Shown: positions 3,906 to 41,672, counted from the first letter of the stretch. The stretch: DNA of 64,000 nt from Candidatus Binatia bacterium (GCA_022824205.1 JAJEAI010000201.1:4704-68703); one strand, 5' to 3'. Made by a program: numbers and translations. Notes: a model not told the origin generated them from the letters alone.

Positions 3906-4207
3906 GATTCCCGCTTTCCAGGCTGTGTCAAAACTCCAAACGAACACGGAATGGCACGGCCACCCCGAACCGTCATGGATATGAAAATAAATTCTTGTTC
4001 AATGATTTCTGGTAGTTACGGAATCCCGCTACACCCCAACGAGTCATTCCCGCGGAAGCGGGAATCCAGGCGGTGTGGGGCCGGGCAATAAGGCCGCCAG
4101 ACCCCCCACCCCTGGATTCCCGCTTCCGCGGGAATGACTCATTGGGGTGTGGGTGCCACCTCTTGTCCGCCAACGTTTTGACACAGCCTCTTCCGCGGAA
4201 TGACGAG
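3906..4207. repeat. MITE/REP-like nested palindromic element, copy A: outer IR GATTCCCGCTTTCCAGGCTGTGTCAAAAC / GTTTTGACACAGCC...GGAATGACGAG flanking a ~175-bp inner palindrome
   Basis: The inner unit GATATGAAAATAAA..TTGTTCAATGATTTCTGGTAGTTACGGAATCCCGCTACACCCCAA.GAGTCATTCCCGCGGAAGCGGGAATCCAGG is followed by its own reverse complement. The same unit recurs at copies B-F. Confidence 0.8.
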
Positions 4208-4449: not shown

Positions 4450-6021
4450 ATGAGGGAAATCGATCGACGCACGTTTCTCAAGGGCATCGGCGTTGTCGGC
4501 GGCACCGCCATCGGCCTGAGCGCGCTGCACCCGTTCGCCATCGGCGCCGAAGGGGACGTCCTGGAGTATGGGTTGGGAGCCGCGGACATCCGCCGTCTCG
4601 ATCCCATGGCCGGTCCCAACTCGACCGACAAGACGGTGCTGGAGCACGTGTACCGGGGGCTTGTGCGGCCGGTGCCCGGCGAGGTGAACGCGGAACGGTT
4701 CGAGCCCGACCTGGCGGAGAGCTGGGAGGCTTCCGGCGACCTCAAGGCGTGGACCTTCAAGCTGAGGCAGGGTGTCGAGTTCCACGGCGGCTTCGGCGAG
4801 TTCACGGCCGACGACGTGGCGTTCTCGCTGAACCGCGCCAGGAACAAGAAGACCAGCATCTACGCCAAGTTCTACAAGCAGTTCGATGACGTCAAGGCGT
4901 TGGACAAGCACACCGTCCGCATCACCCTCAAGACGCCGCAGGGCAAGCTCATCCTGTTGCCCAACCTGCTCGGGTGGCAGGGGGGCATGATCATGAGCCG
5001 GAAGGCTTCCGAGAAGCTCGGCGACAAGATCAAGACCCAGCCCATCGGCACCGGCCCGTTCGCGTTCAAGGAGCACATACCGCAGGAGCGGCTGGTGCTG
5101 GTTCGGAACGACGGCTACTACCGGGGCAAGCCCAACATCCGGCAGATCAACTTCCGCTTCCTGCCGGACGCCAGCAGCCGGAACCTCGCCTTCAAGGCCG
5201 GGGAGCTGCACATCATCGAATTGGCCCGGGAGCAGCGCGCCATCAACCAAGTCAAGGGCCCGGGCGTGGCCATCGAGTCCTTCGGTCCTTCCACGGTGGT
5301 GAAGCTTCACATGGACCGGACGCGCAAGCCGCTGGACGATCTCAGAGTACGCAAGGCCATCGCCCACTCCATCAACCGCGAGGCGCTGGTCCGTTTCATC
5401 GGTCCCGACGTGGCGTCGGTCCTTCACTCGGTGATCCCGCCCACGTTCGTGGGCTCCCTCAAGGACGTGCCCGCGGAACTCCGCTACGACTACAACCCGG
5501 AAAAGGCGAAGCAGCTCCTGGCCGACGCCGGCTTCCCCAAGGGCTTCAAGATCGATCCGGTTTTCATCAGCGAAAAGCCCATGTTCCGGCGCCCCATCGA
5601 GGTGCTTCAGAACCAGTTGCAGCAGGTTGGCATCAACATCAACATCAACGTCATCGCCCATCCGGCCTGGCACAAGAAGAACGACGAGGGCAGCAACCCG
5701 CTGGTGCTGCGGGCGGCGACGCGCTTCCCCACGGCGAACTTCATCCTGGAAGAGTTCTTCGCCAAGGGCGCGAAACGGAACTTCTCCCATTTCAACGGCG
5801 CGGACCCGTCCATTCAGAAGGCCAAGGCCCAGATCGACCCGCGGGGGCAGATCGATGCGTGGCAGGACGCCCAGGTCAAGATACTGGAGGACCTGGCGGC
5901 GCTCCCCACCCACGAGATCAAGAACGTCTACGCGCGCAAGTCCAGCGTCGACATCGGCTTCAAGCTGGAGTCGGACCTGTGCATCTGCGTGCCGCTCAAG
6001 TGGGATGCCAAGATGGGCTAA
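4450..6021 (+). CDS. ABC transporter substrate-binding protein, family 5 (DppA/OppA/NikA-like), Tat signal
   Basis: RRTFLKGIGVVGG is a twin-arginine signal. The length and overall pattern fit peptide/nickel/opine-type substrate-binding proteins. A GGAGCGAGGG ribosome-binding site lies upstream. Confidence 0.8.
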   Translation: MREIDRRTFLKGIGVVGGTAIGLSALHPFAIGAEGDVLEYGLGAADIRRLDPMAGPNSTDKTVLEHVYRGLVRPVPGEVNAERFEPDLAESWEASGDLKAWTFKLRQGVEFHGGFGEFTADDVAFSLNRARNKKTSIYAKFYKQFDDVKALDKHTVRITLKTPQGKLILLPNLLGWQGGMIMSRKASEKLGDKIKTQPIGTGPFAFKEHIPQERLVLVRNDGYYRGKPNIRQINFRFLPDASSRNLAFKAGELHIIELAREQRAINQVKGPGVAIESFGPSTVVKLHMDRTRKPLDDLRVRKAIAHSINREALVRFIGPDVASVLHSVIPPTFVGSLKDVPAELRYDYNPEKAKQLLADAGFPKGFKIDPVFISEKPMFRRPIEVLQNQLQQVGINININVIAHPAWHKKNDEGSNPLVLRAATRFPTANFILEEFFAKGAKRNFSHFNGADPSIQKAKAQIDPRGQIDAWQDAQVKILEDLAALPTHEIKNVYARKSSVDIGFKLESDLCICVPLKWDAKMG

Positions 6022-6121
6022 CGGCCTTTCCCGGTAATTGGAATGCGTTGCGGGGGCGGCCGGCCGGTGGCCCCCGCACGGAACCACCGCGGCGCAGGTT
6101 CCGGGAGGGCCTGGCGGCACC

Positions 6122-7252
6122 ATGGACAACGACGCCTACGTCACCTACCACGGCAATACCGAGGCCGACCGGGAGATCGCGCAGCGGAGCGTTCTCTTCA
6201 TCGACAATGAGACCGCGGCTCGCGTCCTCACCATGGAGGACACCATCGACGCGGTCGAGGTGTCGTATCGTGAGTGGGGTTTGGGGCGGGCCACCGCCAC
6301 CCGGGCGACCCACTCTGTGCCGCGGCCCAACGGGGACGGCTGGTACACCTGGGACCCCATGGCCTCCGCGCTCCCGAAGATGGACGCGCTGGCCGTCCGC
6401 ATGAAGTCGGACATCCTTCCGGCCTCCGGGACCCAGGTCAAGAAGTACTGCGTGGCGCCCGGCAAGTTCTGCGGCCTCATCCTGCTGTTCAGCACCGACG
6501 ACGGCGCGCCCCTGGCGATCATGAACGACGGCCACGTCCAGCACATGCGCGTGGGCGCCGCGGGCGCCATCAGCGTCAAGCACATGGCCCGCGAAGACGC
6601 CGCCGTCCTGGGTCTCTACGGCACAGCCGGCATGGCCACGGCACACGCCCTGGCCATCGCCAAGGTGCGGCCCATCCGCGAGGTCCGCGTGTACAGCCCC
6701 AACCCGGAGCACCGGACGGCCTTTGCCGACCGCACCGGCGCCAACCTGGGAATCCCGGTGGCGGCGGTGGACGACCCGCGCCGCGTGATGGAAGGCGCGG
6801 ACATCGTCGCGGCCTGCACCAACTCGCTGGAGCCGGTGATCAAGGGAGAGTGGCTGGAGCCCGGCATGCACGTCCTGGCCGTGTTGCCCAACGAGATGGA
6901 CGACGACGTGTTTCGCCGGTGCCACCGCTACGTGTATTCCCGCACGCCCAGGACCGACTACCACGTCGCCGACCCCGAACGGCGCCCGGCCGTGGGCTAT
7001 GAGCCCATCGACACGGAGTGGCTGCGCCGGGAGAAGCAGACCATGGGCCGGGAGAAGCGGGTGTTCCTTTCCGACGTGGTTCTCGGGAACCGACCCGGGA
7101 GGGCCTCCTCCGAGGAAATCACCTGCTTCGTCACCCAGGGCATCCCCATCCAGTTCGCGGCGGCGGCCCGCAAGGTCTACGAGGGCGCCCGCGCCCGGGG
7201 CCTGGGCCACGAGTTGCCGCTGAGCTGGTTCCTGCAGGACATCAGCGACTGA
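6122..7252 (+). CDS. ornithine cyclodeaminase / mu-crystallin family protein
   Basis: The Rossmann motif LGLYGTAGMATAHALA and the overall length match the OCD/mu-crystallin family. The start is refined to the ATG at 6122 within the 6038 frame. Confidence 0.65.
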   Translation: MDNDAYVTYHGNTEADREIAQRSVLFIDNETAARVLTMEDTIDAVEVSYREWGLGRATATRATHSVPRPNGDGWYTWDPMASALPKMDALAVRMKSDILPASGTQVKKYCVAPGKFCGLILLFSTDDGAPLAIMNDGHVQHMRVGAAGAISVKHMAREDAAVLGLYGTAGMATAHALAIAKVRPIREVRVYSPNPEHRTAFADRTGANLGIPVAAVDDPRRVMEGADIVAACTNSLEPVIKGEWLEPGMHVLAVLPNEMDDDVFRRCHRYVYSRTPRTDYHVADPERRPAVGYEPIDTEWLRREKQTMGREKRVFLSDVVLGNRPGRASSEEITCFVTQGIPIQFAAAARKVYEGARARGLGHELPLSWFLQDISD

Positions 7253-7262
7253 TCGGGCGGAG

Positions 7263-8204
7263 ATGAGCAGCTATATCGTTCGCAGGACCCTGTGGGCCAT
7301 CCCCACCATGCTGGGGGTCATGGTCTTCATTTTCGTGGTGATGCGGATTCTGCCCGGCGACCCCGCCTATGCCATCCTGGGGGACGAGGCGCCGCCGGAA
7401 GCCCTGGAGCAGTTCCGGCGGAGCTGGGGTCTCCACGAACCGCTCTGGATCCAGTTCCGGGATTATGTCTGGGGTCTCCTGCGGGGCGACCTCGGCATAT
7501 CCATGGCCAACCGCAGGCCCATCCTGCCGCAGATCCTGCGCGCCCTGCCGTACACGCTGGACCTCGCCGTCTCCGGACTGGCGGTGGGTCTCCTGCTGGG
7601 CATCCCCCTGGGCATCCTCACCGCGCGCCGGCGCAACACCATGACGGACTATTGCGCCAGGGTGCTCTCGCTGGCGGGCATCTCCACTCCGTCCTTCTAC
7701 CTCGGCATCCTGCTGATCTTCTTCTTCGCCTACCAGATGCGCCTCTTCCCGGTCATCGGCGCGGGAGACCTCAACGACCCGTGGGACCGTCTGCACCACC
7801 TGGTGCTGCCGGCGCTGAGCGTGGGGTTGGCCATGATGTCCTACATCACCCGGGTGACCCGGTCCGCCCTCCTCGAGGTCATCAACATGGAGTACGTGCG
7901 CACGGCCCGGGCCAAGGGACTCAAGGAGCGCTGGGTGATGTACAAGCACGCGCTCCGCAACGCCTTGATGCCGGTGGTTTCCGTGGTCGGCATCTACACC
8001 GGCATCCTCATCGGCAGCTCCATCCTGGTCACCATCGTGTTCAACCGGCCGGGCCTGGGGAAGCTCATGGTAGGCGGCATCAACACCCATGACTACGCGA
8101 TGCTCCAGGCCGTGATGACCTTCTATGCCGGGATCATCGTGCTGGTGAACCTGTTGACGGACCTGACCTACGCGCTCATCGATCCGCGGATCCGGTACAA
8201 GTGA
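7263..8204 (+). CDS. ABC transporter permease (DppB/OppB-like)
   Basis: This is a multi-pass membrane protein with an EAA-like loop, PALSVGLAMMSYITRVTRSALLEV. The position and size are typical of DppB. Confidence 0.8.
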   Translation: MSSYIVRRTLWAIPTMLGVMVFIFVVMRILPGDPAYAILGDEAPPEALEQFRRSWGLHEPLWIQFRDYVWGLLRGDLGISMANRRPILPQILRALPYTLDLAVSGLAVGLLLGIPLGILTARRRNTMTDYCARVLSLAGISTPSFYLGILLIFFFAYQMRLFPVIGAGDLNDPWDRLHHLVLPALSVGLAMMSYITRVTRSALLEVINMEYVRTARAKGLKERWVMYKHALRNALMPVVSVVGIYTGILIGSSILVTIVFNRPGLGKLMVGGINTHDYAMLQAVMTFYAGIIVLVNLLTDLTYALIDPRIRYK

Positions 8205-9100
8205 ACCGAACCATGAACGCCGATACACAAGAACCCGTGAGCGCCCAAGTCTCGTCCGGCAGCCGCCGGCGCCGCAGGGTCTGGCGCGCCATGAAGCGCA
8301 ACAAGACCACGTTGGTGGGCCTTGTCCTGACCACCGCGATCCTGCTGGTGGCCCTGTTCGCGCCGTGGCTGGTCCCCTTCGATCCGGTCCAGCAGAACCT
8401 CCTCAAGGGAGACATGCCGCCCGGAGCGGAGCACGTGCTGGGCACGGACAGCTTCGGCCGGGACGTGCTCTCGCGCATCGTCATGGGGGCGCGCGTGTCC
8501 CTGGGCATCGCCCTGTCCGCGGTGGGCATGGCGCTGATCTTCGGCAGCACCCTCGGCGTGGTCGCGGGCTACAAGGGCGGCGCCATCGATACCGTCACGG
8601 TCCGCTTGACGGACCTGTTGATGACCTTCCCCACGACGATCCTCGGCTTGATGGTGCTGGCCGTCCTGGGTTCCGGCATGGTGAACCTCTCCATTGCCAT
8701 CGCCATCGCCATCACGCCGCGCTTCGCGCGCATCGCCCGCGGCTCCGCCATCTCGCTGCGGGAGCGGGACTTCATCCAGGGCGCCCGCGCCCTCGGCATG
8801 AGCGACGCGCGCATCATCTGCAAGCACGTCCTGCCCAACATCTCCAACGAGGTGCTCGTGGTCGCAAGCCTCTGGACCGCCACCGCCATCCTCCAGGAAG
8901 CCAACCTGAGCTTCATCGGCCTCGGCGTGAAACCCCCCACCCCCAGTTGGGGCGGCATGATCCGCGACGGCGTCAACCAGCTCCTCAACCAGCCCTGGCT
9001 CTCCATCGCCCCCGGCGCCGCCATCTTCGCCGTGGTCCTGGCCTTCAACATGATCGGCGACGGCCTGAGGGACATCCTCGATCCGCGGACCATGGACTGA
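8201..9100 (+). CDS. ABC transporter permease (DppC/OppC-like)
   Basis: It overlaps the upstream permease by 4 nt. It has an OppC-type N-terminus and a BPD_transp-like core, RFARIARGSAISLRERDFIQGARALG. Confidence 0.8.
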   Translation: MNRTMNADTQEPVSAQVSSGSRRRRRVWRAMKRNKTTLVGLVLTTAILLVALFAPWLVPFDPVQQNLLKGDMPPGAEHVLGTDSFGRDVLSRIVMGARVSLGIALSAVGMALIFGSTLGVVAGYKGGAIDTVTVRLTDLLMTFPTTILGLMVLAVLGSGMVNLSIAIAIAITPRFARIARGSAISLRERDFIQGARALGMSDARIICKHVLPNISNEVLVVASLWTATAILQEANLSFIGLGVKPPTPSWGGMIRDGVNQLLNQPWLSIAPGAAIFAVVLAFNMIGDGLRDILDPRTMD

Positions 9101-9203
9101 CGGCGAACTCGGCGAAGGTGATGGCGAAGGCCCTCGCGTAGCACGAGGGGTCCTTTGCCGGAAAGTTTGCGATTTCAGATAACCTTGGGTAACCTCGATT
9201 GAA

Positions 9204-10388
9204 ATGGATCCGAGACTGAATCCCTATGCACCGGGGGCCGGGACGCCGCCGCCGGAATTGGCCGGGCGAGACACGCTGATCGAAGAGGCTGCCATCGCCC
9301 TGGACCGCATCCGTAACGGCTTGGCGGCCAAGAGCATGCTGATGGTGGGTCTCCGGGGGGTAGGCAAGACCGTCCTTCTCAACCGGATCTGCGACGACGC
9401 CCGAGGCCGCGGCTTTACAACGCTCCTCCTGGAGGCGCCGGAAGACAGATCGCTTCCCGTCCTGCTTGTTCCACCGCTACACGCCGCGCTGGTGCGCATG
9501 AACCGCATCGCTGCCGCCAGCGCCGCCGCCCGCCGGGCACTCAGAGCGCTTGCCGGGTTCGTCAGCGCCATCAAGGTAGGCACCGGCGACCTCAACATCA
9601 GCCTGGATCTCGCCCCGGAACACGGCCTCGCCGACAGCGGCAACCTGGACGCCGACCTGACGGCGCTCCTGGAATCCGTCGGCGAAGCCGCCCGCGATCA
9701 GGACACGGCGGTGGCGCTGTTCGTCGATGAGTTGCAGTATGTGCAGGAACGCGAACTGGCCGCGTTGATCGCCGCCCTCCACCGTGCCGCCCAGAGCCGC
9801 TTGCCGGTCACTCTGGTGGGCGCGGGCCTGCCCCAACTGGTCGCCCGCACCGCGTCCGCCAAGACCTATTCCGAGCGTCTCTTCACTTTCCCGGGGATTG
9901 GTCCGCTGGACCCCGATTCCGCAAGGCTTGCCATCGAAGCGCCGGCAAGGCGCCTTGACGTCGTCTTCCAACCGGCTGCCCTGGATGCGGTGCTGCAAGA
10001 CACCCGGTGCTACCCGTATTTCCTCCAGGAGTGGGGCAAGCACTGCTGGGATTGCGCCAGGTCGTCACCGGTGACGGCGGAAGACGTCGAGTCCGCCACC
10101 CGACAGGCAACCGCCGAACTGGACGCCAGCTTCTTTCGCGCCCGCTTCGATCGCTTGGCGCCCTCCGAAAAGCGCTACCTGCGCGCCATGGCCGAACTCG
10201 GCACCGGCCCGCACCGATCCGGCGAAATCGCCGACGTCCTCGGCCAGTCCGTCCGCGTCGTAGCCCCGACCCGCGCAAAGCTCATCGGCAAAGGCATGAT
10301 CTACAGCCCCGCCCACGGCGACACCGCCTTCACCGTCCCGCTGTTCGACGCCTACCTGCGCCGCGTGATGCCGTTTCCAGAGGGGTGA
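9204..10388 (+). CDS. AAA ATPase, ORC/Cdc6- or COG1672-like, with predicted C-terminal winged helix
   Basis: The N-terminus NPYAPGAGTPPPELAGRD, followed by the Walker A motif GLRGVGKT, is typical of AAA_16/archaeal-type ATPases. It converges on the SIR2 gene. Confidence 0.5.
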   Translation: MDPRLNPYAPGAGTPPPELAGRDTLIEEAAIALDRIRNGLAAKSMLMVGLRGVGKTVLLNRICDDARGRGFTTLLLEAPEDRSLPVLLVPPLHAALVRMNRIAAASAAARRALRALAGFVSAIKVGTGDLNISLDLAPEHGLADSGNLDADLTALLESVGEAARDQDTAVALFVDELQYVQERELAALIAALHRAAQSRLPVTLVGAGLPQLVARTASAKTYSERLFTFPGIGPLDPDSARLAIEAPARRLDVVFQPAALDAVLQDTRCYPYFLQEWGKHCWDCARSSPVTAEDVESATRQATAELDASFFRARFDRLAPSEKRYLRAMAELGTGPHRSGEIADVLGQSVRVVAPTRAKLIGKGMIYSPAHGDTAFTVPLFDAYLRRVMPFPEG

Positions 10389-10390
10389 GG

Positions 10391-10430
10391 CGCCCACAAG
10401 GAGGGCCGGACACCAGCTGTGGGCGCCCTT
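10391..10430. terminator. GC-rich hairpin (GGCGCCCACA...TGTGGGCGCC) between convergent genes; possible bidirectional terminator
   Basis: A perfect 10-bp stem lies immediately after the stop codon at 10388. No strong T-run follows it. Confidence 0.4.
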
Positions 10431-10486
10431 ATAGTTCTAGACCCTCACAGATCTGGTTCGCTCTGTTGTGGAAACAGCGACTGGTA

Positions 10487-13400
10487 TCAGGACGTGGCCC
10501 GTCGGTACATCTCCTGAAAATCCGGTTCCGTTTCTAGTGCGGGCAATGCCTTTTTGAGACTATCGAGAATCCCTTGGATACGATACGCGCTGCCGGGTTG
10601 AATGGGTCCGGGTCCCACAACTCGCGTAAGGATGTCGAAGACGGTCTCCGGATACTTCGAAACACAATCACTCTCTTCCAGGACATATAGACCGTATTGG
10701 TCCCCAGGATTCAGATGGTGAGAAAATTCCGCCACAGCCTTCGGGAATGCGTCGCCGCACTCGAGCAGCAAGAGTAACATTCCCCTGGATGTCTCGGACG
10801 TGTTGCGGGCTCCCTCGTTGGGCCAATACTTTTTGAGCCACGGCAACAACGCGCTCTCCCACATCGTTGCGCGTTCCCCGGAGTCGCCATTCAGCCGTCT
10901 TCTGAGGCTGTCAAGAACCGCCGGTAGTTGATTGTTCGTCAAAGATGCAACGACTTCGCGAATCTCGTCCTCCGCCAACTCGCTTGGTGCTTCAATGCAA
11001 ATGACCATGAACAGTTCCACGAGTCGATCCCGATCATGTTCCCTGACCCCGTCCAACGTCTTGAGTACGCTCAGGAAGGGCTGTTTGAATGCGGCGAGAA
11101 GATCAGGGCCAACCTTGGGCGATAGCGCATACGCTCCCCAAAGGATGTAGGCTTCCTCGGGCGGTTGTGACGGATCGAGACGCCAGAGGAGGTGCTTGTT
11201 GGTCCAGTGTGGGTCAATCGCGAATAGGTCGTACAGCCTATGAACCAAATTGACCCGACCCCAAAGGCCTTCTGGATCGCTAACGATTTTATCAAAATAC
11301 GGTAGGATTGCCGCCGGCAATTTCCCCTGAACAGTCGGGCTGTATTTCCACAGTCGGGTCAGCGCCGCTTGTGCCAGTCTACCAGTCACATGGGTCAACG
11401 CTTGATCGGACAGATCGTGTCCATTCGGTGCTGACTCGGGCGCCCCTTCCCACGCTTTTTGCCAGAGTGTCGCAAACTCCGGTTCTCGTTCAAGGCCGTA
11501 CCTCTCTGCCAAATTGTCCACAAAACCAGCGGCCGCTGAGTCGACGCCTGAGAACAGCGTGACAGGGGCATTGGCAAGGACACGGGCGACACAGTCCTGA
11601 AGTCTCGGCGTCGACCTCTGCACGTTCGGTCCCTGCAAGTGCCAAAGGAAGAGCTGCCAGCAGCGTTGAGGATATTCTTCTTGGTCCGCCAGTCGTCGCA
11701 AAGCCCGTGCAACCTTTACGGGTCGCCGACGGATAAGCCCTTCGAGGGGCAAATCGCCGATTCCTGGATCTTGCAAGGCAGTCGTCAGACCATGAACGGT
11801 AGTCTCGACGAGTTCAGGTGGCGCAAACTCTGCCGGATCGATCCAGTGCGCTTCGCTTCCCCACGACAAGAATTCGTCGCGATCCTCATTGGCATCCCCA
11901 CCCTGCCATTTCACGGCGAGTGACCTGGACTCCTTGTCCAGTTTAGCGCCGCCAGCCGCAAGTTTGCTGAGCCGTAGCGCTTTCTCACGGTCGAGGATGT
12001 CGCTGTCGTAAGCCGAAAACGATCCTTGCCCTGCCTTCGGTCCCGCGTGAATGGCTCGAACGATATCGACGCGCAGACTTCGAGGCAAACGCATCCCTGC
12101 CAACCTTAGGAAGCGCAAGACTTCCCTCCGCAGCTCGTATTCCCACAGGCCGGGTTTCCGACCCGTGATGAGGAGTTTCCTGGCGATACCCATGTCGGGT
12201 TTTCCGCTCTCCGTGAGCGCATGAAGTGCAAGCCGCTTAAGCAGAGGCCGCCTAGACAGTACCCACCGCTCCAGGAGATTTGCCGCAAGTGCCCGGTCTC
12301 TTTGGAACAAGGCCGGGTAGCTGTCTCGGACGAGGTCTATGATGTACGTCCAATCGGCTCGGTGTAGATTTTGCCTGTGCGATGCAATAGACGGACGATA
12401 ATTTCCTGAATCTTGACGATGGCCTTCCATGTCTTCGAGCAGGGTAAGCGCTGTTTCCAGGTAGGTCGTCAGTGTCATGGCGTTTTCGGCGACGAAGCCT
12501 GGATCGTTCAGAATGTTGCGAATACGGTGCCGCATGTCTTTGTCGCCGACCAACAGTTCAAGGTGAGCGCAGGAATCCACCGCCGACAAGGCGCGTTGCT
12601 TCCCTCCGAGGGACTGTCGGAACCTCTTGTGCCACGAAGGACCGGAACGAACCACGTACCGTGGAGCGATGCTCTGGACCACCTGTTCATTGAGCCGACG
12701 GCGTTCAGCCTCGGAGGCTGTTTGTTGCATTGATGCCGGTGGCCATAGGAACGGCTCGTGATAGATCAACTCATTGTCCGAAAGAACTGTCCAGATGTGT
12801 CTGAGTTCGCTGGGGACCTCCACGGCAGGTTCGATAAGTTTCCCTCGGATCAGCCTGTGAAGGGAGGGGTGCATTTTCCCGCCCCTCTCAACTACCCAAG
12901 TCAGTACTTGGGAAATATGGAGATGCAGAGCAATCCACCGCGCCAAATGCCATGTGACCTTTCCCAATAATGGAGGACTTTGGGTACGTTCGCCTCCGTC
13001 TACCAACTGGACGTGGGAGCTGGCGTGGTCCACCCCGGCTTCGTCCAGGCTTTCAGCGCAAGATAGCAATCCCGCATCGGCGAAGATGTCTAGCCACTTC
13101 GTCAGTCTTGGGAAATCTCTTTCGTCCGTCAGCGGGGTGCTGTCGGCCAATCTTTCCGCAGCTATCGGGTCGTGCAGAGCCCACACAACGCGCTCCACGA
13201 CCGGGTCGTCCGGGCCACCCGGGAGCTTCGACATCTCATTAAGGGCTATTTGAGTGCGCGCCCGGAAGGGATCGTTCCGAATGCGTGCCCACTCTGTTAA
13301 TGTCTGGCGGAGCAGGCCATGATCGCCTTGTTTGTCATACAAAATCGGCACGACGTTCTTTGCCTGCCAGGCTCTGTCGGTTCTCTCCTTGTTTGCGTCG

Positions 13401-14164
13401 GTGCCGTCGTGGTCGGCGAACGCGTAAGCCAGCCGGAAAGAGGCTCCCTTGGAGCGTTCGGCTGCGAGAGCGTCGACCATGTAACCCATAACGGGGTCGT
13501 CGAGGCTGTAACCGATGAACACAATCGTGAACTCACGAAACAGCTCGGTGACGAATCGGGCCGCCCACTGCTCCGTAAGGTAGGCACGCCCGAAGTCGGC
13601 AGCGGTCAAAACCAGATCGGTGCCGTCGCTGTCCCCACAGATGCGGCCATGAAGATGCACAACCGACGACCAGTTGTGGCGCTTTGGCCAAGGTAGTTTC
13701 GGCGCGGAATCAACCTTCTTTTCGTCAATCCCCGCTTCCACGAAGCGGTTGTCGAAATTGGTAGTGACAAGACGGACACCCTGTTTGTGGCGCGAAAGGT
13801 CGATCAGCGCTTTGTGGTTGGTCAGTTCATCATGGGGTGGCTTCGATAGCAGAGTCATGACACAGCGACGTAGCTGTAGAGTGCCGAGACGTTCCGGCCT
13901 CTCGATCAAGTTGAGCACCTTGTCGAGTTGCGGTCGTCGACGGGTGTCGTCCTTCTCGTCGCAGTCGAGAGCTTCTCTCTCGACAATGTCAGGCGTGAGG
14001 TCTTTGGTCTTGTAGATATGCTTCACGAGACCGCCAAAGTTGGGAAGTCCAGACTCCGGTCCCATGGAAACGCCAGCCCCACAGAAGAAGACGGCACGGC
14101 CGTCGTCGAGTTCGTTCATTAGGCGAATGGGGATGTTTGGTCCCTTCGCTACGAGTTCAGGCAT
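10487..14164 (-). CDS. SIR2-like (SIR2_2) domain protein with ~950-aa alpha-helical C-terminal region; DSR-like (DSR1/DSR2-type) candidate anti-phage NADase
   Basis: The N-terminal 270 aa carry AVFFCGAGVS...GLPNFGGL, VTTNFD and HLHG, which are the signature blocks of the SIR2_2 family. The rest is helical repeats with no other motif. The GC content looks lower than in flanking genes. Confidence 0.7.
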   Translation of the reverse strand: MPELVAKGPNIPIRLMNELDDGRAVFFCGAGVSMGPESGLPNFGGLVKHIYKTKDLTPDIVEREALDCDEKDDTRRRPQLDKVLNLIERPERLGTLQLRRCVMTLLSKPPHDELTNHKALIDLSRHKQGVRLVTTNFDNRFVEAGIDEKKVDSAPKLPWPKRHNWSSVVHLHGRICGDSDGTDLVLTAADFGRAYLTEQWAARFVTELFREFTIVFIGYSLDDPVMGYMVDALAAERSKGASFRLAYAFADHDGTDANKERTDRAWQAKNVVPILYDKQGDHGLLRQTLTEWARIRNDPFRARTQIALNEMSKLPGGPDDPVVERVVWALHDPIAAERLADSTPLTDERDFPRLTKWLDIFADAGLLSCAESLDEAGVDHASSHVQLVDGGERTQSPPLLGKVTWHLARWIALHLHISQVLTWVVERGGKMHPSLHRLIRGKLIEPAVEVPSELRHIWTVLSDNELIYHEPFLWPPASMQQTASEAERRRLNEQVVQSIAPRYVVRSGPSWHKRFRQSLGGKQRALSAVDSCAHLELLVGDKDMRHRIRNILNDPGFVAENAMTLTTYLETALTLLEDMEGHRQDSGNYRPSIASHRQNLHRADWTYIIDLVRDSYPALFQRDRALAANLLERWVLSRRPLLKRLALHALTESGKPDMGIARKLLITGRKPGLWEYELRREVLRFLRLAGMRLPRSLRVDIVRAIHAGPKAGQGSFSAYDSDILDREKALRLSKLAAGGAKLDKESRSLAVKWQGGDANEDRDEFLSWGSEAHWIDPAEFAPPELVETTVHGLTTALQDPGIGDLPLEGLIRRRPVKVARALRRLADQEEYPQRCWQLFLWHLQGPNVQRSTPRLQDCVARVLANAPVTLFSGVDSAAAGFVDNLAERYGLEREPEFATLWQKAWEGAPESAPNGHDLSDQALTHVTGRLAQAALTRLWKYSPTVQGKLPAAILPYFDKIVSDPEGLWGRVNLVHRLYDLFAIDPHWTNKHLLWRLDPSQPPEEAYILWGAYALSPKVGPDLLAAFKQPFLSVLKTLDGVREHDRDRLVELFMVICIEAPSELAEDEIREVVASLTNNQLPAVLDSLRRRLNGDSGERATMWESALLPWLKKYWPNEGARNTSETSRGMLLLLLECGDAFPKAVAEFSHHLNPGDQYGLYVLEESDCVSKYPETVFDILTRVVGPGPIQPGSAYRIQGILDSLKKALPALETEPDFQEMYRRATS

Positions 14165-14262
14165 AGTCTCTACAGGTTGGGTACTTTGCCGTTCGTCGTG
14201 TCACAGGCGCATACAGGTCGGAATGCCTTACTCCAGGAGTCTCCCGGGAAATTACGCTGAGC

Positions 14263-14955
14263 TTAAGCCCCGTGGCTCTCCAACCGTTGCAACCACGCTT
14301 CGAAGTGTGGACATTCTGCCCGTATGGCATCTAGGCCGATTCCCAGCGCGGCGAGGGTTCCCATCAAGGGTTTTTGGTATCCGGGAATGAGTGCAGCGAC
14401 TCGCTTCGAAGGCGCCGTGTCCGGGGAGTCGTCGATTTCTTCGGGGTTTGAGAAGGCGTCTCTAATCGCCTGAAGCGGGCCGGTCAGTTCGGACTTGCCG
14501 ATCCCAAGGGCAAATTGCTCGCAATCGCTGAACAGGAGTGCCTCGAACTCGTGCATTGTGACGAACGGAATGAAGCGGGACGAATCGAAGCCGCCGCCCA
14601 TTATCCTAGCGACATCCTCCAGAAGGGCCTTCTCCACGACTTCGGGTTTTGCCTGGGATCCGGCATGAGAGGCTTCCTCGCGACCTGGCCATGCTTTGGG
14701 ACCGGTACGTGGCAACCCGTAGTAGTCCACCATCGTGGCCGCGCTGCTCGCGGGGTCTTGCCTCAGGTGATTCACAATCGTCTTGCGCACTTCCGATCAC
14801 GGTCGGACACCGCCACGCTTGCCCCGCTGCCGGGCGTTACCGATGAGCCGGGCGCTGACTGAGGAGTATCCGTGATCTTGGAGATGGGGCGCGAGCAATT
14901 TGTTGACGAATTGCTCTTCGGTCTGCCCCTCGACATGAACGAGTAGCCGGGTCAC
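14263..14955 (-). pseudogene. DUF4276 family (TOPRIM/RloB-like) gene, disrupted by a frameshift at ~14790-14797
   Basis: The N-terminal fragment, GTG at 14955 to TGA at 14797, reads MTRLLVHVEGQTEEQFVNKLLAPHL. It resumes in another frame as the 175-aa ORF 14263..14790, which contains ...MHEFEALLFSD...PEEIDDSPDTAPSKR...CPHFEAWL. The two pieces together, ~228 aa, equal a full-length DUF4276. Confidence 0.6.
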
Positions 14956-16124
14956 CGCGAAGACTGCCGGTCCTTGTTTTCAGGGTAAGGACGTCCGCCG
15001 AGTTCGTTCTTCTCCCAAAGTTGTCCCAGGCTGTAGTCCTCCAGCCAGACCTTGAGCGCTTCGGCATCCTGTCTGCGGAGTTCCGTGGCACCGTTCACCC
15101 GCTCGGCCACCAACACGTCTTCGGGGTCGAAGTGATCCAGAAGTATAGGCGATTGGGTTGCCGCGATGACCTGGGACTCTACTGAGGCCTGTTTTAGCAA
15201 TGAGGCCAACAAGGTGATCGCATGTGGATGCAAGCCAAGCTCCGGCTCGTCGAGAAAAATGACAGAGGGGCGTAGCGACGCTGGCTGGAGCAGTAACGTA
15301 GCCAAAGCAATGAACCGGAGCGACCCATCGGAAAGGGAGGAGGCATCGAAATAGGCATCCGAGTCGACATGCCGCCATTCGAGCCGGATCGTGTCTTCGT
15401 TCAGTGCTAGAGGTTCGAGCGCGAAATCATCGAAGAACGGCGCCGTCAATCGAATAGTACGGCGAATCTGCGTATAGGAACTTCCGTGTCTCTTCCGCAG
15501 GAAATAAAGGAACGCCGCAAGATTCGCGCCGTCCGGGCGAAGATAGCGATTGTCGTTTACTTTTCCGGTCTCCTTCATTGGGGATTTTGAGCCCGCGTCG
15601 TGAAAGTGGTAAAGTCGCCAACTCTCCAACCTGCTCCTGATGAATTCAAGAGCCGGCGCCATACCAGGCTGCACTTCGAGGTTGCTTGCGAAATCCGGCG
15701 GCAGTTCGGTTGCGGCAATCGATATTCGTGGAAACAACTGATCGTCCGCCCCGTAAGGCATATCGACACTAAAGTCCGCCAAACCGTCACTGAAGCGGAT
15801 GTTGAAGTTTATCGAGCGAGTCTTTTTTGAACCGAAGTGAAGAAGACGGTTGGCCCCGCCAGAACGCCGGACATAGTCTGATGTCCGAGACGCGCTCAGA
15901 ATGGCGGTTCGCAAGAGCTGCAGGGCGCCAAGAAAGTTGGACTTGCCTGACCCGTTGGCGCCGATGAGGACGTTCAGGGGCCGCATTTCCAGGTCCCGCA
16001 TCTCAGCAATGCTCCTGAAGCCTTCAATCGAAATGGCACGAATCGCCGACATGGTTCCCTCTGTACCCGGAACACCGGCCGACGCTGTGGGTTCGACTGG
16101 GTGTTCCGAAAGCCAAGATGCCAC
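14952..16124 (-). CDS. ABC-type AAA_15/AAA_21 ATPase (OLD/RloA/AbiLi-like)
   Basis: The Walker A motif is VLIGANGSGKSN. The Walker B/D-loop is VIFLDEPELGLHP. The stop TGA overlaps the GTG start of the downstream DUF4276 gene (GTGA). Confidence 0.75.
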   Translation of the reverse strand: MASWLSEHPVEPTASAGVPGTEGTMSAIRAISIEGFRSIAEMRDLEMRPLNVLIGANGSGKSNFLGALQLLRTAILSASRTSDYVRRSGGANRLLHFGSKKTRSINFNIRFSDGLADFSVDMPYGADDQLFPRISIAATELPPDFASNLEVQPGMAPALEFIRSRLESWRLYHFHDAGSKSPMKETGKVNDNRYLRPDGANLAAFLYFLRKRHGSSYTQIRRTIRLTAPFFDDFALEPLALNEDTIRLEWRHVDSDAYFDASSLSDGSLRFIALATLLLQPASLRPSVIFLDEPELGLHPHAITLLASLLKQASVESQVIAATQSPILLDHFDPEDVLVAERVNGATELRRQDAEALKVWLEDYSLGQLWEKNELGGRPYPENKDRQSSR

Positions 16125-16213
16125 GTCCCTGCGCTAGCGGCAAGCTGGCAGCCTGCGGTGACTTACACCAGTGCGCCAGCGTCCGTTGGGAACACAAGCC
16201 GGCCGGCCTGCCA

Positions 16214-16480
16214 TCAGAAAATCTCCTCGATGTCCTTCCCAATCATCGACCGTTCGCGGACAACGATCTCCAGACCAAGAGCGGTCATCACATCCAGCAA
16301 CGTGCGCATCCGCGTCCCCGGCATACCGTTCTCCAAGGCCGAGATGGTTGCCTGTCGTAGACGAATCCTGTCCCCGACTTCCTGCTGACTCAGTTTGAGT
16401 ATCCGACGCCGACGGCGAATTGCTGCACCCAGTTGTATCGAGGTTCGGGCCATCTGTTCCACAAGCCTTCCTCCTCTCAA
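16214..16480 (-). CDS. XRE-family helix-turn-helix transcriptional regulator
   Basis: LKLSQQEVGDRIRLRQATISALENG is a Cro/C1-type HTH. The true start may be the internal Met of MARTSIQLG, about 30 nt downstream. Confidence 0.6.
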   Translation of the reverse strand: MRGGRLVEQMARTSIQLGAAIRRRRRILKLSQQEVGDRIRLRQATISALENGMPGTRMRTLLDVMTALGLEIVVRERSMIGKDIEEIF

Positions 16481-16516
16481 TACGGATCTACTATGCGTTA
16501 TAGCGAATAAATAGCA

Positions 16517-16545
16517 AATATACGGTCTCCCGTATACGGTCTATG
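16517..16545. promoter_or_regulatory. direct repeat TATACGGTCT-CCCG-TATACGGTCT containing the palindrome CCGTATACGG; candidate operator upstream of the XRE gene
   Basis: This is read directly in the 16480-16568 intergenic region, immediately 5' of the XRE gene start. Confidence 0.3.
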
Positions 16546-16567
16546 GCAAGACCGGAGCACACACGCC

Positions 16568-17341
16568 CTACCGCTTGTAGAGACTGGGTAATCTCGGCCA
16601 AGCCGACCGGCGCATCTCGCCGTCGAACACGCCCCGCTTCCCCCTCAGAAACTCCATGGCGTCGGTCCACGCCTTGGCTTCGGCCGGGATGATTTCTTCC
16701 CGCGCGCGGTGGTCGTGTTTCTCGGTGAACCGGTCGAGGGTGTCGTGCAAGGATTGTGCGGCGCGGATCTGGAGTTGCCGTAGTTCGGCGAAGTGCGGGT
16801 CACCGCCCTGGGTTTCTTCGGCCACGAGGAAATGCGGGATGCAGATACCGAAAGAGTTGCGGTACTTCTCGGCGAAGGTCCCGTCTCCGAGCAGGTCCAG
16901 CAGTTGTTGGAGGTGGACGGACTCCGACCGGGCGGCAACCACGCAGGCGGGACAGGGCGTCTTTTTGAGTCGTGCCCGGAGGCCTGAACGAGCACGTGTC
17001 AGCCAACCTTTGAGCGTGGCCCATCCAGCCACGCGTGGTGCATTGGCCCTGTCGTGGAAACGGCTCAGCAGGTCCTTGGCGATGATGGCGAAGCCCAGGT
17101 CCGGGGCGCTGGATGCCGGCAGGTCGCGCAGCAGCCACATGTGCGGGTTGCAGAGGCCGAAGGACTCCCGCAGCCCCTCGCGCGTGGGCACGTCGGTGAC
17201 GCGTTCGTAGAGGACGCTGTCCAGGTAGGCGTGGCTGTCGTCGATGACGATGGCGCAGATGGGGCAGCCCGGCTTGCCGAGGCGGTCGAAGAGCTTGAAG
17301 TAGAAGCTGTCGTGGCGCGCTTGTTCGTTCACGTCACTCAT
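16568..17341 (-). CDS. hypothetical protein with two tandem CPxC...CxPH(M/F)(W/L) modules (putative metal-binding)
   Basis: The repeated modules are GCPICAIV...FGLCNPHMWLL and PCPACVVA...FGICIPHFLVA. I recognise no enzymatic motif. Confidence 0.45.
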   Translation of the reverse strand: MSDVNEQARHDSFYFKLFDRLGKPGCPICAIVIDDSHAYLDSVLYERVTDVPTREGLRESFGLCNPHMWLLRDLPASSAPDLGFAIIAKDLLSRFHDRANAPRVAGWATLKGWLTRARSGLRARLKKTPCPACVVAARSESVHLQQLLDLLGDGTFAEKYRNSFGICIPHFLVAEETQGGDPHFAELRQLQIRAAQSLHDTLDRFTEKHDHRAREEIIPAEAKAWTDAMEFLRGKRGVFDGEMRRSAWPRLPSLYKR

Positions 17342-17370
17342 GAAATCGGGCGTGTTGGCCGCCTCCGGGT

Positions 17371-17677
17371 CATTGATATGAAAATAAAGTCTTGTTCAAT
17401 GATTTCTGGTAGTTACGGAATCCCGCTACATCCCAATGAGTCATTCCCGCGGAAGCTTGCCCTCGACTCCGATCGGGGGCGGGAATCCAGGGGTGGGGCC
17501 GGGCAGTGAGGTCGCCACACCCCCCACCCATGGATTCCCGCCCCCGATCGGAGTCGAGGGCAAGCTTCCGCGGGAATGACGATATGGGGTGGCGGTGCCA
17601 CTTCCACTTCGTAGCCGAGCGGAGTCTTGACACAGCCTGGAAAAGCGGGAATGACGGAGGGAGCCGGGAATGACGGA
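17371..17677. repeat. MITE/REP-like element copy B (inner palindrome with a 25-bp insertion, plus right outer arm CTTGACACAGCCTGGAAAAGCGGGAATGACGG)
   Basis: It has the same unit as copy A. It abuts the stop codon of the MOP-like gene at 17678. Confidence 0.8.
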
Positions 17678-20422
17678 TCATTTCCTCAGCGCCCGCCAGA
17701 CCTTCTCTCCCGTAATCGGCAGGTCGGTGATGCGCACGCCCACGGCCTGGTCCACGGCGTTGGCGATGGCCGAGGGGACGGGAAGGATGCCGCTCTCGCC
17801 CAGTCCCTTGGCGCCGTAGGGGCCGGCGCCGTTACCGTTTTCGAAGAGGATGTTGACCTGCTCGTCGGGCAGGTCGGAGATCTTCGGCAGGCGGTAGGTG
17901 AGCGCGTCGGGGGTGAGCATCAGGCCGTTCTCGTACACGGTTTCCTCGAACAGCGCCTGGCCGAGCCCCTGCAGGAACGCGCCCTGCTCCTGGGTGTGGC
18001 ACTGCTGGGGGTTGATGGCCTTGCCGGCGTCGGCGATGCCGACGTACTTGAGCACCCGCACGTCGCCCGTGTCCCGGTCCACGTGCACCTTGGCGGCCCC
18101 CCATCCCACCTCCCAGAACGGCGCGCGGGCGCCGAGGGGGGCGTCGGGATCGCGTTCGCTCACCTGCCGGCCCTCGCCGGTGATGACGCCGCCCTCACCG
18201 TTGACGTGCCGCACCAGCGCCGAGAACGGGAAGGCGATCTCCGCCAGGCGCACCTCGCCGTTGGCGAAGGTCGCGACGGCGTCGGGGCTCTGGCCCATGG
18301 AGCGAGCGGCCTCGACGAGCTGGTCGCGGACGGCCTGGGCGGCCTTCTGCACCGCGAGCCCCATGACCGTGGTGGCGCTGCTGGCGTAGGTGCCCATGTC
18401 GAAGGGGGTCGAGTCGGTGTCCAGGGACGCCACGTGGACGGCCGTGGGGCTCACGCCCAGTTCTTGGGCGGTAATTCGCGCCATGGCCGTGTGGGAGCCC
18501 TGGCCGATCTCGATGGTGCCCTCGTGCAGGGTGATGCCGCCGCTGTCGTCCACCTCCACCCGCGCGGACGAGATCTTGAAGTTGCCGCCGCCGTCCTTGC
18601 AGCCGCAAGCGACGCCGATGCCGCAGTCCGGCTCCAGCTCCTGCCCCCAGCCGATCTCCCTGGCGGCGCGCAGAAGTCCTTCCTTGAGGTCGGTGTCCAG
18701 GGGGGTCTCGCCGGGGGCGAAGTCTTCGCCCTTGTCGAGCAGGTTCTTGAGCCGGAACTCCACCGGGTCCCAGCCCATCTCCCGCGCGATGATGTCCATC
18801 TGCGATTCGTAGGCCCACACCACCTGGGGTGTGCCCATGCCCCGGAACGCGCCGGCCGGCACCGTGTTGGTGTAGACGGTGTAGGCGTGGGAACGGAGGT
18901 GCGGGATGCGGTACGGGCCGGGCGCCCGGTAGCCCGCCTTCTGCGTGACCCGGGGACCCGAGTCCGAGTAGGCGCCGCCGTCCACGTGCACGAGGCAGTC
19001 CCGCGCCACGAGCTTCCCGTCCCGGTCCACGCCGGTGCGGAGCCGGACGCGCGCGGCCGGCTTGCTCACGATGCGCGACTCCTCTTCCAGCGACAGGTGC
19101 AGGAACACCCGCCGTCCGGCCTTGCGGGACAGCGCCACCGCCAGGGGCTCGAGCTTGGTGTGGTTCTTGTTGCCGTAGGTGCCACCCACCAGCGGCACCA
19201 CCACCCGCGCGCGTTCCCGCGGTACGCCGAACATCTCCGCCAGCTCGTTGCGCACGATGAACTGGTGCTGGGTGGACGCCCACACGGTGAACCCGCCCTC
19301 ATGCCACTCGGCGACGGCGAGTTGCGGCTCCATGGAGTAGTGGGCGATCTTGGGGAAGTCGAAGGTGTGTTCGAATATCCGCTCCGATGCGGCGAACCCT
19401 TCGTCCACGTCGCCCTTGCCGCGCTCGTAGTGGAAGCTCACGTTGCCGTACTTCTTGGCCTCGTCGTCGACGCGGGGATACCCGGGAAAGCTCGGGGCGT
19501 CGTCGCTGACGGACTCGTGGATGGGCGGGGCATCGGGGTCCAGCGCCTCGTCCATGGTCATCAGCGCCGGCAGGGGCTCGTATTCCACCCGGATGAGTGC
19601 CAGCGCCGCGGTGGCCGTCTCCAGGGTCTCGGCGGCCACCGCCGCCACCGCGTCGCCCTCGTAACGGACCTTGTCCGTGGCCAGCACCGGCGTGTCCTTC
19701 ACCAGCGGGCCGTGGTAGTGCTCGACGTCCGCGAGGTCCGCGACGGTGAGCACCGCCACCACGCCGGGATGGGCTTCGGCCGCGGAAGTGTCGATGCCGA
19801 GGATGCGCGCATGGGCGTGGGGGCTGCGCAGGACCCGCCCGTAGAGCATGCCCGGGTACGTCAGGTCGGCGGTGTACACGGGCTCGCCGCGGACCTTGGC
19901 GGCGCCGTCGAGGCGGCGCTCGTCGAGCGGCCTCGGCGCCGACGTCTCCTGCCCGCGCAGCAGCGCCGCGGCCCGGTCCACCGACCGGATGATGGACCGG
20001 TAACCGGTGCATCGGCAGATGTTGCCGTCCAGCGCGTCCTTGATTTCCTCTTCCGAAGGGTCGGGATTCTCGTCCAGCAGGGCGCGGGCGGCTAGGATCA
20101 TGCCCGGCGTGCAGAAGCCGCACTCGAAGCCGCCTTCCTCCCAGAACGCCTCCTGCACAGGGTCCAGCGCGTCGTCGTTGCCAAGACCCTCGATGGTCGT
20201 CAGCGAGCGCCCGTTGACCTCGTGCGCCAGGGTCGTGCACGCGCTCACCGGGCGGCCGTCCAGCAGCACCGTGCAGGAGCCGCACACCTCCACCTCGCAA
20301 CTCGTCTTGGTGCCCTTGAGCCCCAGGTCGCGGCGCAGGAAGTCCGCCAGCAACAGTTCCGGCGCCACGCTGGCGCCGCGCGCCTGGCCGTTCAGCTCGA
20401 ATTGAATCTCGATCTCGTTCAT
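17678..20422 (-). CDS. molybdopterin aldehyde oxidoreductase, MOP-like (fused N-terminal 2x[2Fe-2S] domain plus xanthine-dehydrogenase-family Mo-binding domain)
   Basis: The N-terminus carries CEVEVCGSCTV and CGFCTPG...CRCTGY, which are the [2Fe-2S] motifs. The remaining ~750 aa resemble a CoxL/XdhB-type Mo subunit. At 914 aa the length matches the single-chain MOP type. Confidence 0.8.
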   Translation of the reverse strand: MNEIEIQFELNGQARGASVAPELLLADFLRRDLGLKGTKTSCEVEVCGSCTVLLDGRPVSACTTLAHEVNGRSLTTIEGLGNDDALDPVQEAFWEEGGFECGFCTPGMILAARALLDENPDPSEEEIKDALDGNICRCTGYRSIIRSVDRAAALLRGQETSAPRPLDERRLDGAAKVRGEPVYTADLTYPGMLYGRVLRSPHAHARILGIDTSAAEAHPGVVAVLTVADLADVEHYHGPLVKDTPVLATDKVRYEGDAVAAVAAETLETATAALALIRVEYEPLPALMTMDEALDPDAPPIHESVSDDAPSFPGYPRVDDEAKKYGNVSFHYERGKGDVDEGFAASERIFEHTFDFPKIAHYSMEPQLAVAEWHEGGFTVWASTQHQFIVRNELAEMFGVPRERARVVVPLVGGTYGNKNHTKLEPLAVALSRKAGRRVFLHLSLEEESRIVSKPAARVRLRTGVDRDGKLVARDCLVHVDGGAYSDSGPRVTQKAGYRAPGPYRIPHLRSHAYTVYTNTVPAGAFRGMGTPQVVWAYESQMDIIAREMGWDPVEFRLKNLLDKGEDFAPGETPLDTDLKEGLLRAAREIGWGQELEPDCGIGVACGCKDGGGNFKISSARVEVDDSGGITLHEGTIEIGQGSHTAMARITAQELGVSPTAVHVASLDTDSTPFDMGTYASSATTVMGLAVQKAAQAVRDQLVEAARSMGQSPDAVATFANGEVRLAEIAFPFSALVRHVNGEGGVITGEGRQVSERDPDAPLGARAPFWEVGWGAAKVHVDRDTGDVRVLKYVGIADAGKAINPQQCHTQEQGAFLQGLGQALFEETVYENGLMLTPDALTYRLPKISDLPDEQVNILFENGNGAGPYGAKGLGESGILPVPSAIANAVDQAVGVRITDLPITGEKVWRALRK

Positions 20423-20552
20423 GGGTTCCTCGGTGGGGAGGTTTCGCGGGTTCTTGCGGCGGACTCGATCATCTGTAGCAGATCGCCGTGCGGGCCGCGA
20501 GGAGGAAACGACGAGGAAAACATCGTTGCGGTTGGCCGCCGACGCCCCTCAA

Positions 20553-20778
20553 CGTCATTCCCGCGGAAGCGGGAATCCAGGGGTGGGGGGTGTGGCGGCC
20601 TCATTGCCCGGCCCCACCCCGCCTGGATTCCCGCTTCCGCGGGAATGACTCATTGGGGTGTAGCGAGATTCCGCAACTACCAGAAATCATTGAACAAGTT
20701 TTTGTTTTCATATCAATGACGATTCGAGGAGTCTCTGCCCTGTGAGTATTGACACAACCTGAGAAGCGGGAGACAAGG
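20553..20778. repeat. MITE/REP-like element copy C (reverse orientation, left half truncated)
   Basis: The sequence GTCATTCCCGCGGAAGCGGGAATCCAGG...CATTGGGGTGTAGCGAGATTCCGCAACTACCAGAAATCATTGAACAAGTTTTTGTTTTCATATCAATGACGA...TTGACACAACC lies between the UbiD stop and the MOP start. Confidence 0.75.
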
Positions 20779-23172: not shown

Positions 23173-23410
23173 CCCCCCAATGAGTCATTCCCGCGGAAGC
23201 GGGAATCCAGGCGGGGTGGGGCCGGGCAATGAGGTCGCCACACCCCCCACCCCTGGATTCCCGCTTCCGCGGGAATGACTCATTGGGGTGTAGCGAGATC
23301 CCGTAACTACCAGAAATCATTGAACAAGTTTTTATTTTCATATCAATGACGACTCGATGGGCCTCCGCCCCATGAGTCTTGACACAGCCGCTTCCGCGCG
23401 AATGACGACC
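23173..23410. repeat. MITE/REP-like element copy D
   Basis: It has the same inner palindrome plus the outer arm CTTGACACAGCCGCTTCCGCGCGAATGACGACC. Confidence 0.8.
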
Positions 23411-26655: not shown

Positions 26656-26707
26656 CGCTCAGATCGAATCCGTCAGTCTTACCTCACCACCGTCACCTCT
26701 CTGATCG

Positions 26708-26985: not shown

Positions 26986-27046
26986 AGGAGAAAGCGACGG
27001 GGATCGATGCGGGTTCCAGATAGCATGTTCGGATGAGCACCGAACT

Positions 27047-41666: not shown

Positions 41667-41672
41667 GGGCGA

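Follow-up and report, generated by a model that had tools for sequence, protein, structure and literature searches.

A 64,000-nt stretch of DNA from Candidatus Binatia bacterium (GCA_022824205.1 JAJEAI010000201.1:4704-68703; hereafter the window) carries, within a block at 10487-17341, a gene of the DSR1 family of SIR2 defense proteins, an HEC-01 gene pair, and an XRE-type regulator. We propose, with a probability of roughly 75%, that the interval in which these genes lie, flanked by dppC and an AAA_16 ATPase gene on one side and by DUF6062 and a molybdenum-cofactor (MoCo) dehydrogenase gene on the other, is an old, core-flanked defense hotspot of a Binatia clade, remodeled since by loss, decay, and recombination. 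Across the ten related loci that cover the site, six different contents occur, empty sites included. The same cassette occupies the same position in three of these ten (L065, L066, and L067) and is therefore no recent arrival confined to this genome. It may have been present at the site in the ancestor of several lineages or may have been repeatedly exchanged through homologous flanks; later changes would have been deletions of all or part of it, inactivating point mutations, and recombination between alleles. The original prediction, made from the window alone, had read the block as mobile defense cargo of five genes, with a miniature inverted-repeat transposable element (MITE) at one end and a GC-rich hairpin and a convergent ATPase gene at the other. 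It was right that the cargo is accessory, looks foreign, and lacks an integrase, and wrong about the unit, its boundaries, and the implied recency.

Boundaries and composition of the cargo

The identities of the window's DppC protein to Binatia contigs (98% to L002, a contig of a metagenome-assembled genome [MAG]; 95% to L003; 89-91% to L004-L008, which are complete Binatia MAG chromosomes) place the window in Candidatus Binatia. A look-up of the exact DppC sequence returned no record. L002, the closest relative, is collinear with the window over 5034-10392 and 16557-20501 (95-96% nucleotide identity) and has 22 bp in place of the sequence between. Collinearity outside 10393-16556 thus delimits the cargo to DSR1, the HEC-01 pair (14263-16124), and XRE. 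The cargo lies precisely where the stop codons of AAA_16 and DUF6062 face each other; in L002 these two genes follow one another with ~40 bp between them.

DUF6062 follows the MoCo dehydrogenase gene in all examined relatives that cover that side of the locus; it is directly downstream in L002, L004, L006-L008, L065, and L066 and is present in L003, irrespective of cargo. Because DUF6062 and the MITE-like repeat beyond it sit at the same place in the cargo-less L002 and L003, they are native flank rather than island parts or boundary markers, and DUF6062 itself had no PADLOC match. Nor does the single-strand array, offered earlier as a feature of the block, set it apart, since DUF6062 and the MoCo dehydrogenase and UbiD genes upstream are likewise on the minus strand. 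On the opposite side, AAA_16 is the left flank here yet is variably present in the clade, being 89-98% identical in L002-L005, L008, L065, and L067 and missing or truncated in three relatives (absent from L007 and L066, truncated in L006). AAA_16 and DUF6062 may themselves be older accessory layers of the same hotspot. DUF6062 also diverges far faster than its MoCo neighbor (71-75% versus 85-90% identity between lineage groups).

The compositional signal, which the original prediction had proposed to check, is strong. GC falls from 0.66-0.70 to 0.55-0.59 over ~10500-16500, tetranucleotide distance peaks at 10001-17500, and GC at third codon positions (GC3) is 0.63-0.68 in cargo genes versus 0.91-0.95 in core genes, with AAA_16 (0.81) and DUF6062 (0.82) intermediate. 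The cargo is low in GC (0.56-0.60, versus 0.65-0.70 for the genome) in every carrier lineage.

Among the open reading frames (ORFs) scanned between 1862 and 29910, all five genes of the block included, none has an integrase, recombinase, or transposase domain, in agreement with the original prediction. Direct repeats resembling att sites, sought both where that prediction had suggested looking and at the true junctions, amounted to chance-level matches of 12-16 nt, with none at 10393 or 16556. A tRNA/tmRNA scan of the window found none, and an Rfam scan found no family. The predicted hairpin at the far end of the block does fold, with a modest z of -2.4, and is conserved in L067 together with the whole 98-bp spacer in which it lies; it has no T-tract and hence is not a canonical intrinsic terminator.

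Contents, decay, and mosaicism of the locus in relatives

The cassette order is shared well beyond the closest relatives. In L065 and L066 it reads DUF6062-HEC-01A-DUF4276-DSR1-(XRE)-AAA_16/dppC, with flank proteins 83-96% and DSR1 76-78% identical to those of the window; the short contig L067 reads HEC-01A-DUF4276-DSR1-AAA_16, with AAA_16 95% and DSR1 93% identical. In a 5.8-billion-protein collection, the closest DSR1 homologues were 93%, 78%, and 76% identical and the next 60%, and all three closest sit at this locus in other Binatia contigs (L067; L065, L066). Synteny, proposed earlier as a check on recent insertion, therefore cut both ways: L002 and L003 lack the block, but the same cassette order stands at the same locus in these diverged lineages. 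Of the refuting combination that the original prediction named, one half, conserved gene order among relatives, is seen, and the other, uniform composition, is not.

Other occupants of the site are partial or different. In L003, 142 bp from the 3' end of DUF4276 (81% nucleotide identity) remain between AAA_16 and DUF6062, evidence of deletion and so of loss rather than gain. In L007, dppC is followed directly by DUF6062. L004 carries XRE-HipA-HEC-01A-DUF4276 plus an ORF of 214 aa of unknown kind, and L008 carries HEC-01A-DUF4276-XRE. L006 has XRE-HipA, the truncated AAA_16, and a ParE-like toxin paired with an HTH protein; L005 has two tandem insertion sequence (IS) copies (DDE_Tnp_1) and an AAA_14/DUF4143 gene. 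No DSR1 remnants were found in the genomes lacking DSR1. Among carriers, the first 63 codons of DUF4276 are missing in L065, a stop lies 12 codons before the end of DUF4276 in L066, and a 13-nt indel frameshifts DSR1 in L067.

The locus is also mosaic. Flank genes form the groups {window, L002, L003, L067}, {L065, L004}, and {L066, L008}, and the two HEC-01A allele classes, {window, L008, L065} versus {L067, L004, L066}, cut across them. Aligned with L067, the window is 91-99% identical at the nucleotide level over AAA_16, DSR1, and most of DUF4276, but inside HEC-01A the value falls to 62-70%; this drop marks a recombination breakpoint.

Families were assigned by profile (Pfam, PADLOC, and NCBIfam), and the resulting anatomy is listed in Table 1. 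All five minus-strand ORFs of the original prediction were recovered, in the families SIR2_2/Dsr1, DUF4276/HEC-01B, AAA_21/HEC-01A, HTH_3 (XRE), and DUF6062, and the gaps between them are short, as described: DSR1 and DUF4276 are 98 bp apart, XRE and HEC-01A 89-161 bp according to the start chosen, and DUF6062 and XRE 87-105 bp. The convergent gene at the left is indeed an ATPase, although of the AAA_16 family, its match to COG1672/ATPase_2 being weak (E 0.005).

Table 1. Features of the block and its flanks (positions in the window)
Feature	Position	Strand	Basis or remark
AAA_16 (ORC/Cdc6-like) ATPase	9204-10388	+	Pfam AAA_16 2.4e-14; convergent, left flank here
GC-rich hairpin	10389-10427		Between convergent stops of AAA_16 and DSR1; -25.4 kcal/mol
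Cargo, 6.16 kb	10393-16556		Extra relative to L002
DSR1, 1225 aa, ORF intact	10487-14164	-	PADLOC Dsr1, NCBIfam Dsr1, Pfam SIR2_2
Spacer upstream of DSR1, 98 bp	14165-14262	-	Blocks conserved in L065, L066, L067
HEC-01B (DUF4276, TOPRIM-like) pseudogene	14263-14955	-	Pieces of 52 aa and 175 aa; C-terminal ORF 14263-14790
Premature TGA in HEC-01B	14797-14799	-	Conserved Trp codon in relatives
HEC-01A ABC-type ATPase (AAA_21), intact	14952-16124	-	PADLOC HEC-01A, Pfam AAA_21; likely start 16052
HipB-like XRE regulator	16214-16480	-	Pfam HTH_3; no HipA partner
AT-rich spacer with palindrome	16481-16556	-	TATACGG-N-CCGTATA at 16518-16537
DUF6062 protein, two CxxC...CxxH motifs	16568-17341	-	Pfam DUF6062 1.7e-10; native flank
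MITE-like palindromic intergenic repeat	17369-17677		Arms 17429-17498 and 17522-17591

DSR1

Proteins of the DSR1 family carry an N-terminal SIR2 NADase that is kept inactive by a large C-terminal sensor region, and they deplete NAD+ on sensing a phage component. The window's DSR1, a single protein, matches PADLOC Dsr1 (PDLC04167, E 4e-161) with residues 4-1217 against profile positions 3-1233 of 1248 and NCBIfam Dsr1 (NF041818, E 2e-190) with residues 4-1219, full length, and its N-terminal SIR2 domain is matched by Pfam SIR2_2 at residues 132-274. TTNFD (N136) and HLHG (H172) are invariant across 15 homologues, and GAGVS at residues 29-33 is invariant in A1.

Like the DSR1 described by Gao et al. 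(2020) and Garb et al. (2022), this is a protein of ~1200 aa with an N-terminal SIR2 and the catalytic Asn and His, homologous over its full length to both the PADLOC and NCBIfam Dsr1 profiles. It differs in its distance from the characterized Bacillus protein (635 bits against an equivalog cut-off of 1400), in having no solved-structure relative detectable by sequence (a sequence search of the PDB gave no match), and in its host, an uncultured Binatia bacterium. Judged by its sequence, it is a divergent branch of the family. The upstream spacer blocks are kept in L065, L066, and L067 although the proteins have diverged (76-94%), and the spacer probably holds a promoter and ribosome-binding site of DSR1's own.

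DSR1 causes NAD+ depletion, and phage-triggered NAD+ depletion and protection are known for the Bacillus protein (Garb et al.). DSR1 is likely the sole active component of the cargo, and by analogy the intact protein would deplete NAD+ on sensing a phage component.

The HEC-01 pair

The ATPase of the pair matches PADLOC HEC-01A (PDLC04175, 3e-125) over residues 26-379 and Pfam AAA_21 (2e-31), and its Walker A (GANGSGKS), signature (LSDGS), and Walker B (VIFLDEPE) motifs are intact. The gene probably begins at the ATG at 16052 (366 aa), the equivalent of which begins the gene call in the Logan contig L001. The downstream gene had been predicted as one DUF4276 gene of 175 aa; the family stands, but the start is really at 14955, overlapping the ATPase stop (GTGA), and an in-frame TGA, the one internal stop of the frame-1 translation, divides the gene into two fragments. 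The window reads GGVRP*SEVRK where the intact orthologues of L004 and L008 read GGVKPW(S/P)EVRK. With the Trp restored, HEC-01B matches Pfam DUF4276 over positions 1-192 of 192 at 168 bits; the C-terminal fragment alone gives 130 bits and matches PADLOC HEC-01B at 8e-54. The same TGA is found in L001, which is 100% identical to the window over 7389 bp; L001 comes from a separate Logan assembly, the source sample of which may be the same as the window's. Recoding of the TGA, including as selenocysteine, was considered and rejected, as AAA_16 and HEC-01A both end at TGA and relatives have Trp at this position.

The N-terminal fragment contains VEGQTEE, which, from TOPRIM domains in general and from the account of Payne et al., we take to hold the TOPRIM catalytic Glu. 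Since the stop separates this Glu from the rest of the domain, the nuclease partner is very probably inactive, and the HEC-01 system is probably dead here.

HEC-01 (Hma-embedded candidate 01; of the broader OLD/Gabija/PARIS class, in which an ABC ATPase is paired with a TOPRIM protein) was described as an ABC ATPase with a TOPRIM-like protein (Payne et al. 2024 preprint). The window's pair shares with it the order of an AAA_21-type ATPase gene and then an overlapping DUF4276 gene, and both genes match the HEC-01A and HEC-01B profiles strongly. The differences are the premature stop in the DUF4276 gene and the neighbors, which here are XRE and DSR1; the pair is not embedded in Hma, and an Hma-like system lies ~23 kb away.

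The XRE regulator

XRE matches Pfam HTH_3 (4e-8), and in NCBIfam it scores best with couple_hipB (3e-11) and HipB (2e-7), in each case below the cut-off. The XRE genes of the locus form two positional classes, and the window's groups with the HipB-type ones found before hipA in L004 and L006. These positional orthologues are 74-76% identical to it and have HipA next. Unlike L004 and L006, the window contains no HipA gene, and a search of the window for a hipA remnant found none; the one short 'HipA' match was an over-extended ORF overlapping XRE. What the gene has in common with HipBA type II toxin-antitoxin modules is its HipB-like character and its orthology, by position and sequence, to the XRE genes before hipA. 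We conclude that it is an orphan HipB-like antitoxin or regulator left from a HipBA module and not a toxin-antitoxin system. The AT-rich palindrome upstream includes a terminator-like match (16537-16518), and the XRE genes of L008 and L066 have similar ATACG/CGTAT repeats upstream. The spacer may be the promoter or operator of XRE, the terminator of DUF6062, or both, and the orphan XRE may still regulate transcription from it.

Alternative explanations

A single recent insertion of a five-gene mobile defense island that ends at the MITE and, at the opposite side, at the hairpin and ATPase would account for the sharp drop in GC and GC3 and for the absence of the block from the two closest relatives, L002 and L003. 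We nevertheless consider this very improbable and largely refuted already. The parts that stand are that the cargo is accessory, compositionally foreign, and absent from L002 and L003; it is neither a five-gene, MITE-bounded unit nor a recent private arrival. The empty site has DUF6062 and the MITE too, lineages with flank proteins no more than 83-96% identical share the cassette at this site, the DUF4276 remnant of L003 speaks for loss instead of gain, the cassette has an internal recombination breakpoint, and integrase, att repeats, and tRNA were not found. Less improbable, though still unlikely, is that the site, a permissive one between convergent terminators, repeatedly took up a low-GC cassette from outside the clade, independently in each lineage. 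The foreign composition of all carriers (GC 0.56-0.60) would fit such a history, as would the incongruence of HEC-01A allele classes with flank genes and the occurrence of DSR1 relatives on 34 IMG/VR viral contigs, which indicates that the family is mobile in general. Against it, the closest DSR1 relatives (93, 78, and 76%) are exactly those at this locus, followed by others at 60% or less; gene order and spacers are conserved among carriers; and the DSR1 groups {window, L067} and {L065, L066} roughly track the flank groups.

The genes could also be thought to belong together. That XRE, HEC-01, and DSR1 form one cooperating system, for example an ATPase/TOPRIM pair acting with or regulating the sirtuin, is suggested by their shared orientation, tight spacing, and co-inheritance at this locus in four contigs. 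We regard it as highly implausible. Among 114 other loci of DSR1 homologues (34 IMG/VR viral and 80 metagenomic contigs, covered to at most 6 kb on either side, as far as the contig reached), none had a DUF4276 neighbor and two had weak ATPase matches, and general linkage of HEC-01 with DSR1 was rejected on this count. HEC-01 occurs without DSR1 in L004 and L008, which together with the count of 0/114 argues for local co-residence and not for a general composite system. HEC-01B is broken and DSR1 intact in the window, the reverse holds in L067, and DSR1 works as a single gene (Garb et al.). A narrower version, in which HEC-01, DSR1, and XRE are a functional module co-inherited in this clade, where for example the pair might act upstream of the NADase or back it up, is also most doubtful; if it were true, the HEC-01A allele classes and the foreign composition would reflect long-term balancing selection on a composite system.

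Several points weigh against an old, eroding hotspot as well. Its persistently low GC across lineages is hard to reconcile with a long vertical history, barring frequent exchange or selection on composition. The comparison covers 11 related loci, mostly MAGs, and the L067 frameshift and the L066 stop could be assembly errors; the TGA of HEC-01B is confirmed only by the identical Logan contig, which may share the window's sample. The NCBIfam score of DSR1 (635 bits) is below the equivalog cut-off of 1400, and the HEC-01 type system gave no defense in assays and was never shown to act against any phage (Payne et al.).

Relation to described hotspots

Core defense hotspots have core flanks, lower GC, and no single mobilizing mechanism (Johnson et al. 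2023). The Binatia locus resembles cDHS1/2 of P. aeruginosa (Johnson et al. 2023) and the integration hotspots of E. coli (Hochhauser et al. 2023) in its variable cargo between conserved flanks, its GC below that of the genome, its being occupied or empty in different genomes, and its lack of a single mobilizing element. It differs in being small (0-8 kb or more) and in extending across species-level lineages of an uncultured class instead of one species. Its diversity, moreover, is largely the decay and reshuffling of one shared cassette, as opposed to many unrelated systems.

All parts come from known families, the hotspot concept is known, and no new mechanism is involved. The locus offers a worked example of a core-flanked, eroding, and recombining defense hotspot in the uncultured class Binatia, and it illustrates that recent insertion need not follow from a strong compositional island signal. 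For annotation, the island boundaries are corrected, HEC-01B is flagged as a pseudogene, and XRE is recognized as a HipB relic.

The MITE-like repeat and neighboring genes

The original prediction correctly identified a repeat at the upstream end of the block, and at least five related copies occur in the window (near 3972-4123, 20569-20720, 23199-23350, 26707-26986, and 27911-28054). Its core is a palindrome with 70-nt arms at 17429-17591 (-98.9 kcal/mol, z -17), and the family has the core motif GTCATTCCCGCGG...CCGCGGGAATGAC, with intergenic copies in the window and in L002. Copies break short-read contigs, as L001 and L003 end inside them. Neither Rfam nor a blastn search of PLSDB plasmids gave a match to the repeat. 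L002 and L003 have it at this site; L004, L006-L008, L065, and L066 have a 44-bp spacer between MoCo and DUF6062 and no repeat, so its insertion was a separate, older event in the group of the window, L002, and L003. No target-site duplication could be read, the 44-bp spacer of the other genomes being simply replaced.

To the left of the block, the Dpp/Opp-type importer genes (4450-9100) encode SBP_bac_5, an ornithine cyclodeaminase-like protein, DppB, and DppC, without ATPase genes. The original prediction had noted this lack, which is unconnected with the block. All close Binatia relatives, empty-site genomes included, and more distant ones are likewise without the ATPase genes here. Displacement of dppD/dppF by the island was rejected, as the empty-site L002 and L007 and the distant L010, where dppC is followed by an amidohydrolase gene, also lack them after dppC.

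The Hma-like system lies on the minus strand at 38988-52571, Hma being the context in which HEC systems were first defined. It comprises a PLD-helicase (38988-41666; PADLOC PLD_Helicase 2e-231), a DUF1156 methyltransferase (45407-48814; 7e-290), DUF3780 (48844-49503), and a DUF499 ATPase (49500-52571; 4e-211). Between helicase and methylase are a type IIG restriction-methyltransferase-like gene (42350-45376) and an ORF of 226 aa of unknown kind, and low-GC patches occur at 42-47 kb. An AddA/AddB-type pair at 30924-37756 (UvrD helicase with PD-(D/E)XK; ADDB_N with PD-(D/E)XK) is matched spuriously, through its UvrD domain, by the PADLOC GajB and DRT helicase models.

Finally, two relatives carry further elements. 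The IS-like unit of L005 (12834-16898) has a 2176-bp period and encodes a DDE_Tnp_1 transposase and an overlapping DruA-like/DDE_Tnp_1_assoc ORF, followed by the AAA_14/DUF4143 ATPase. Outside its own hotspot, which is empty, L007 has a second, distant HEC-01-like pair downstream of the MoCo gene (8721-10443); compared with the proteins of the window, its ATPase is 37% and its DUF4276 protein 45% identical.

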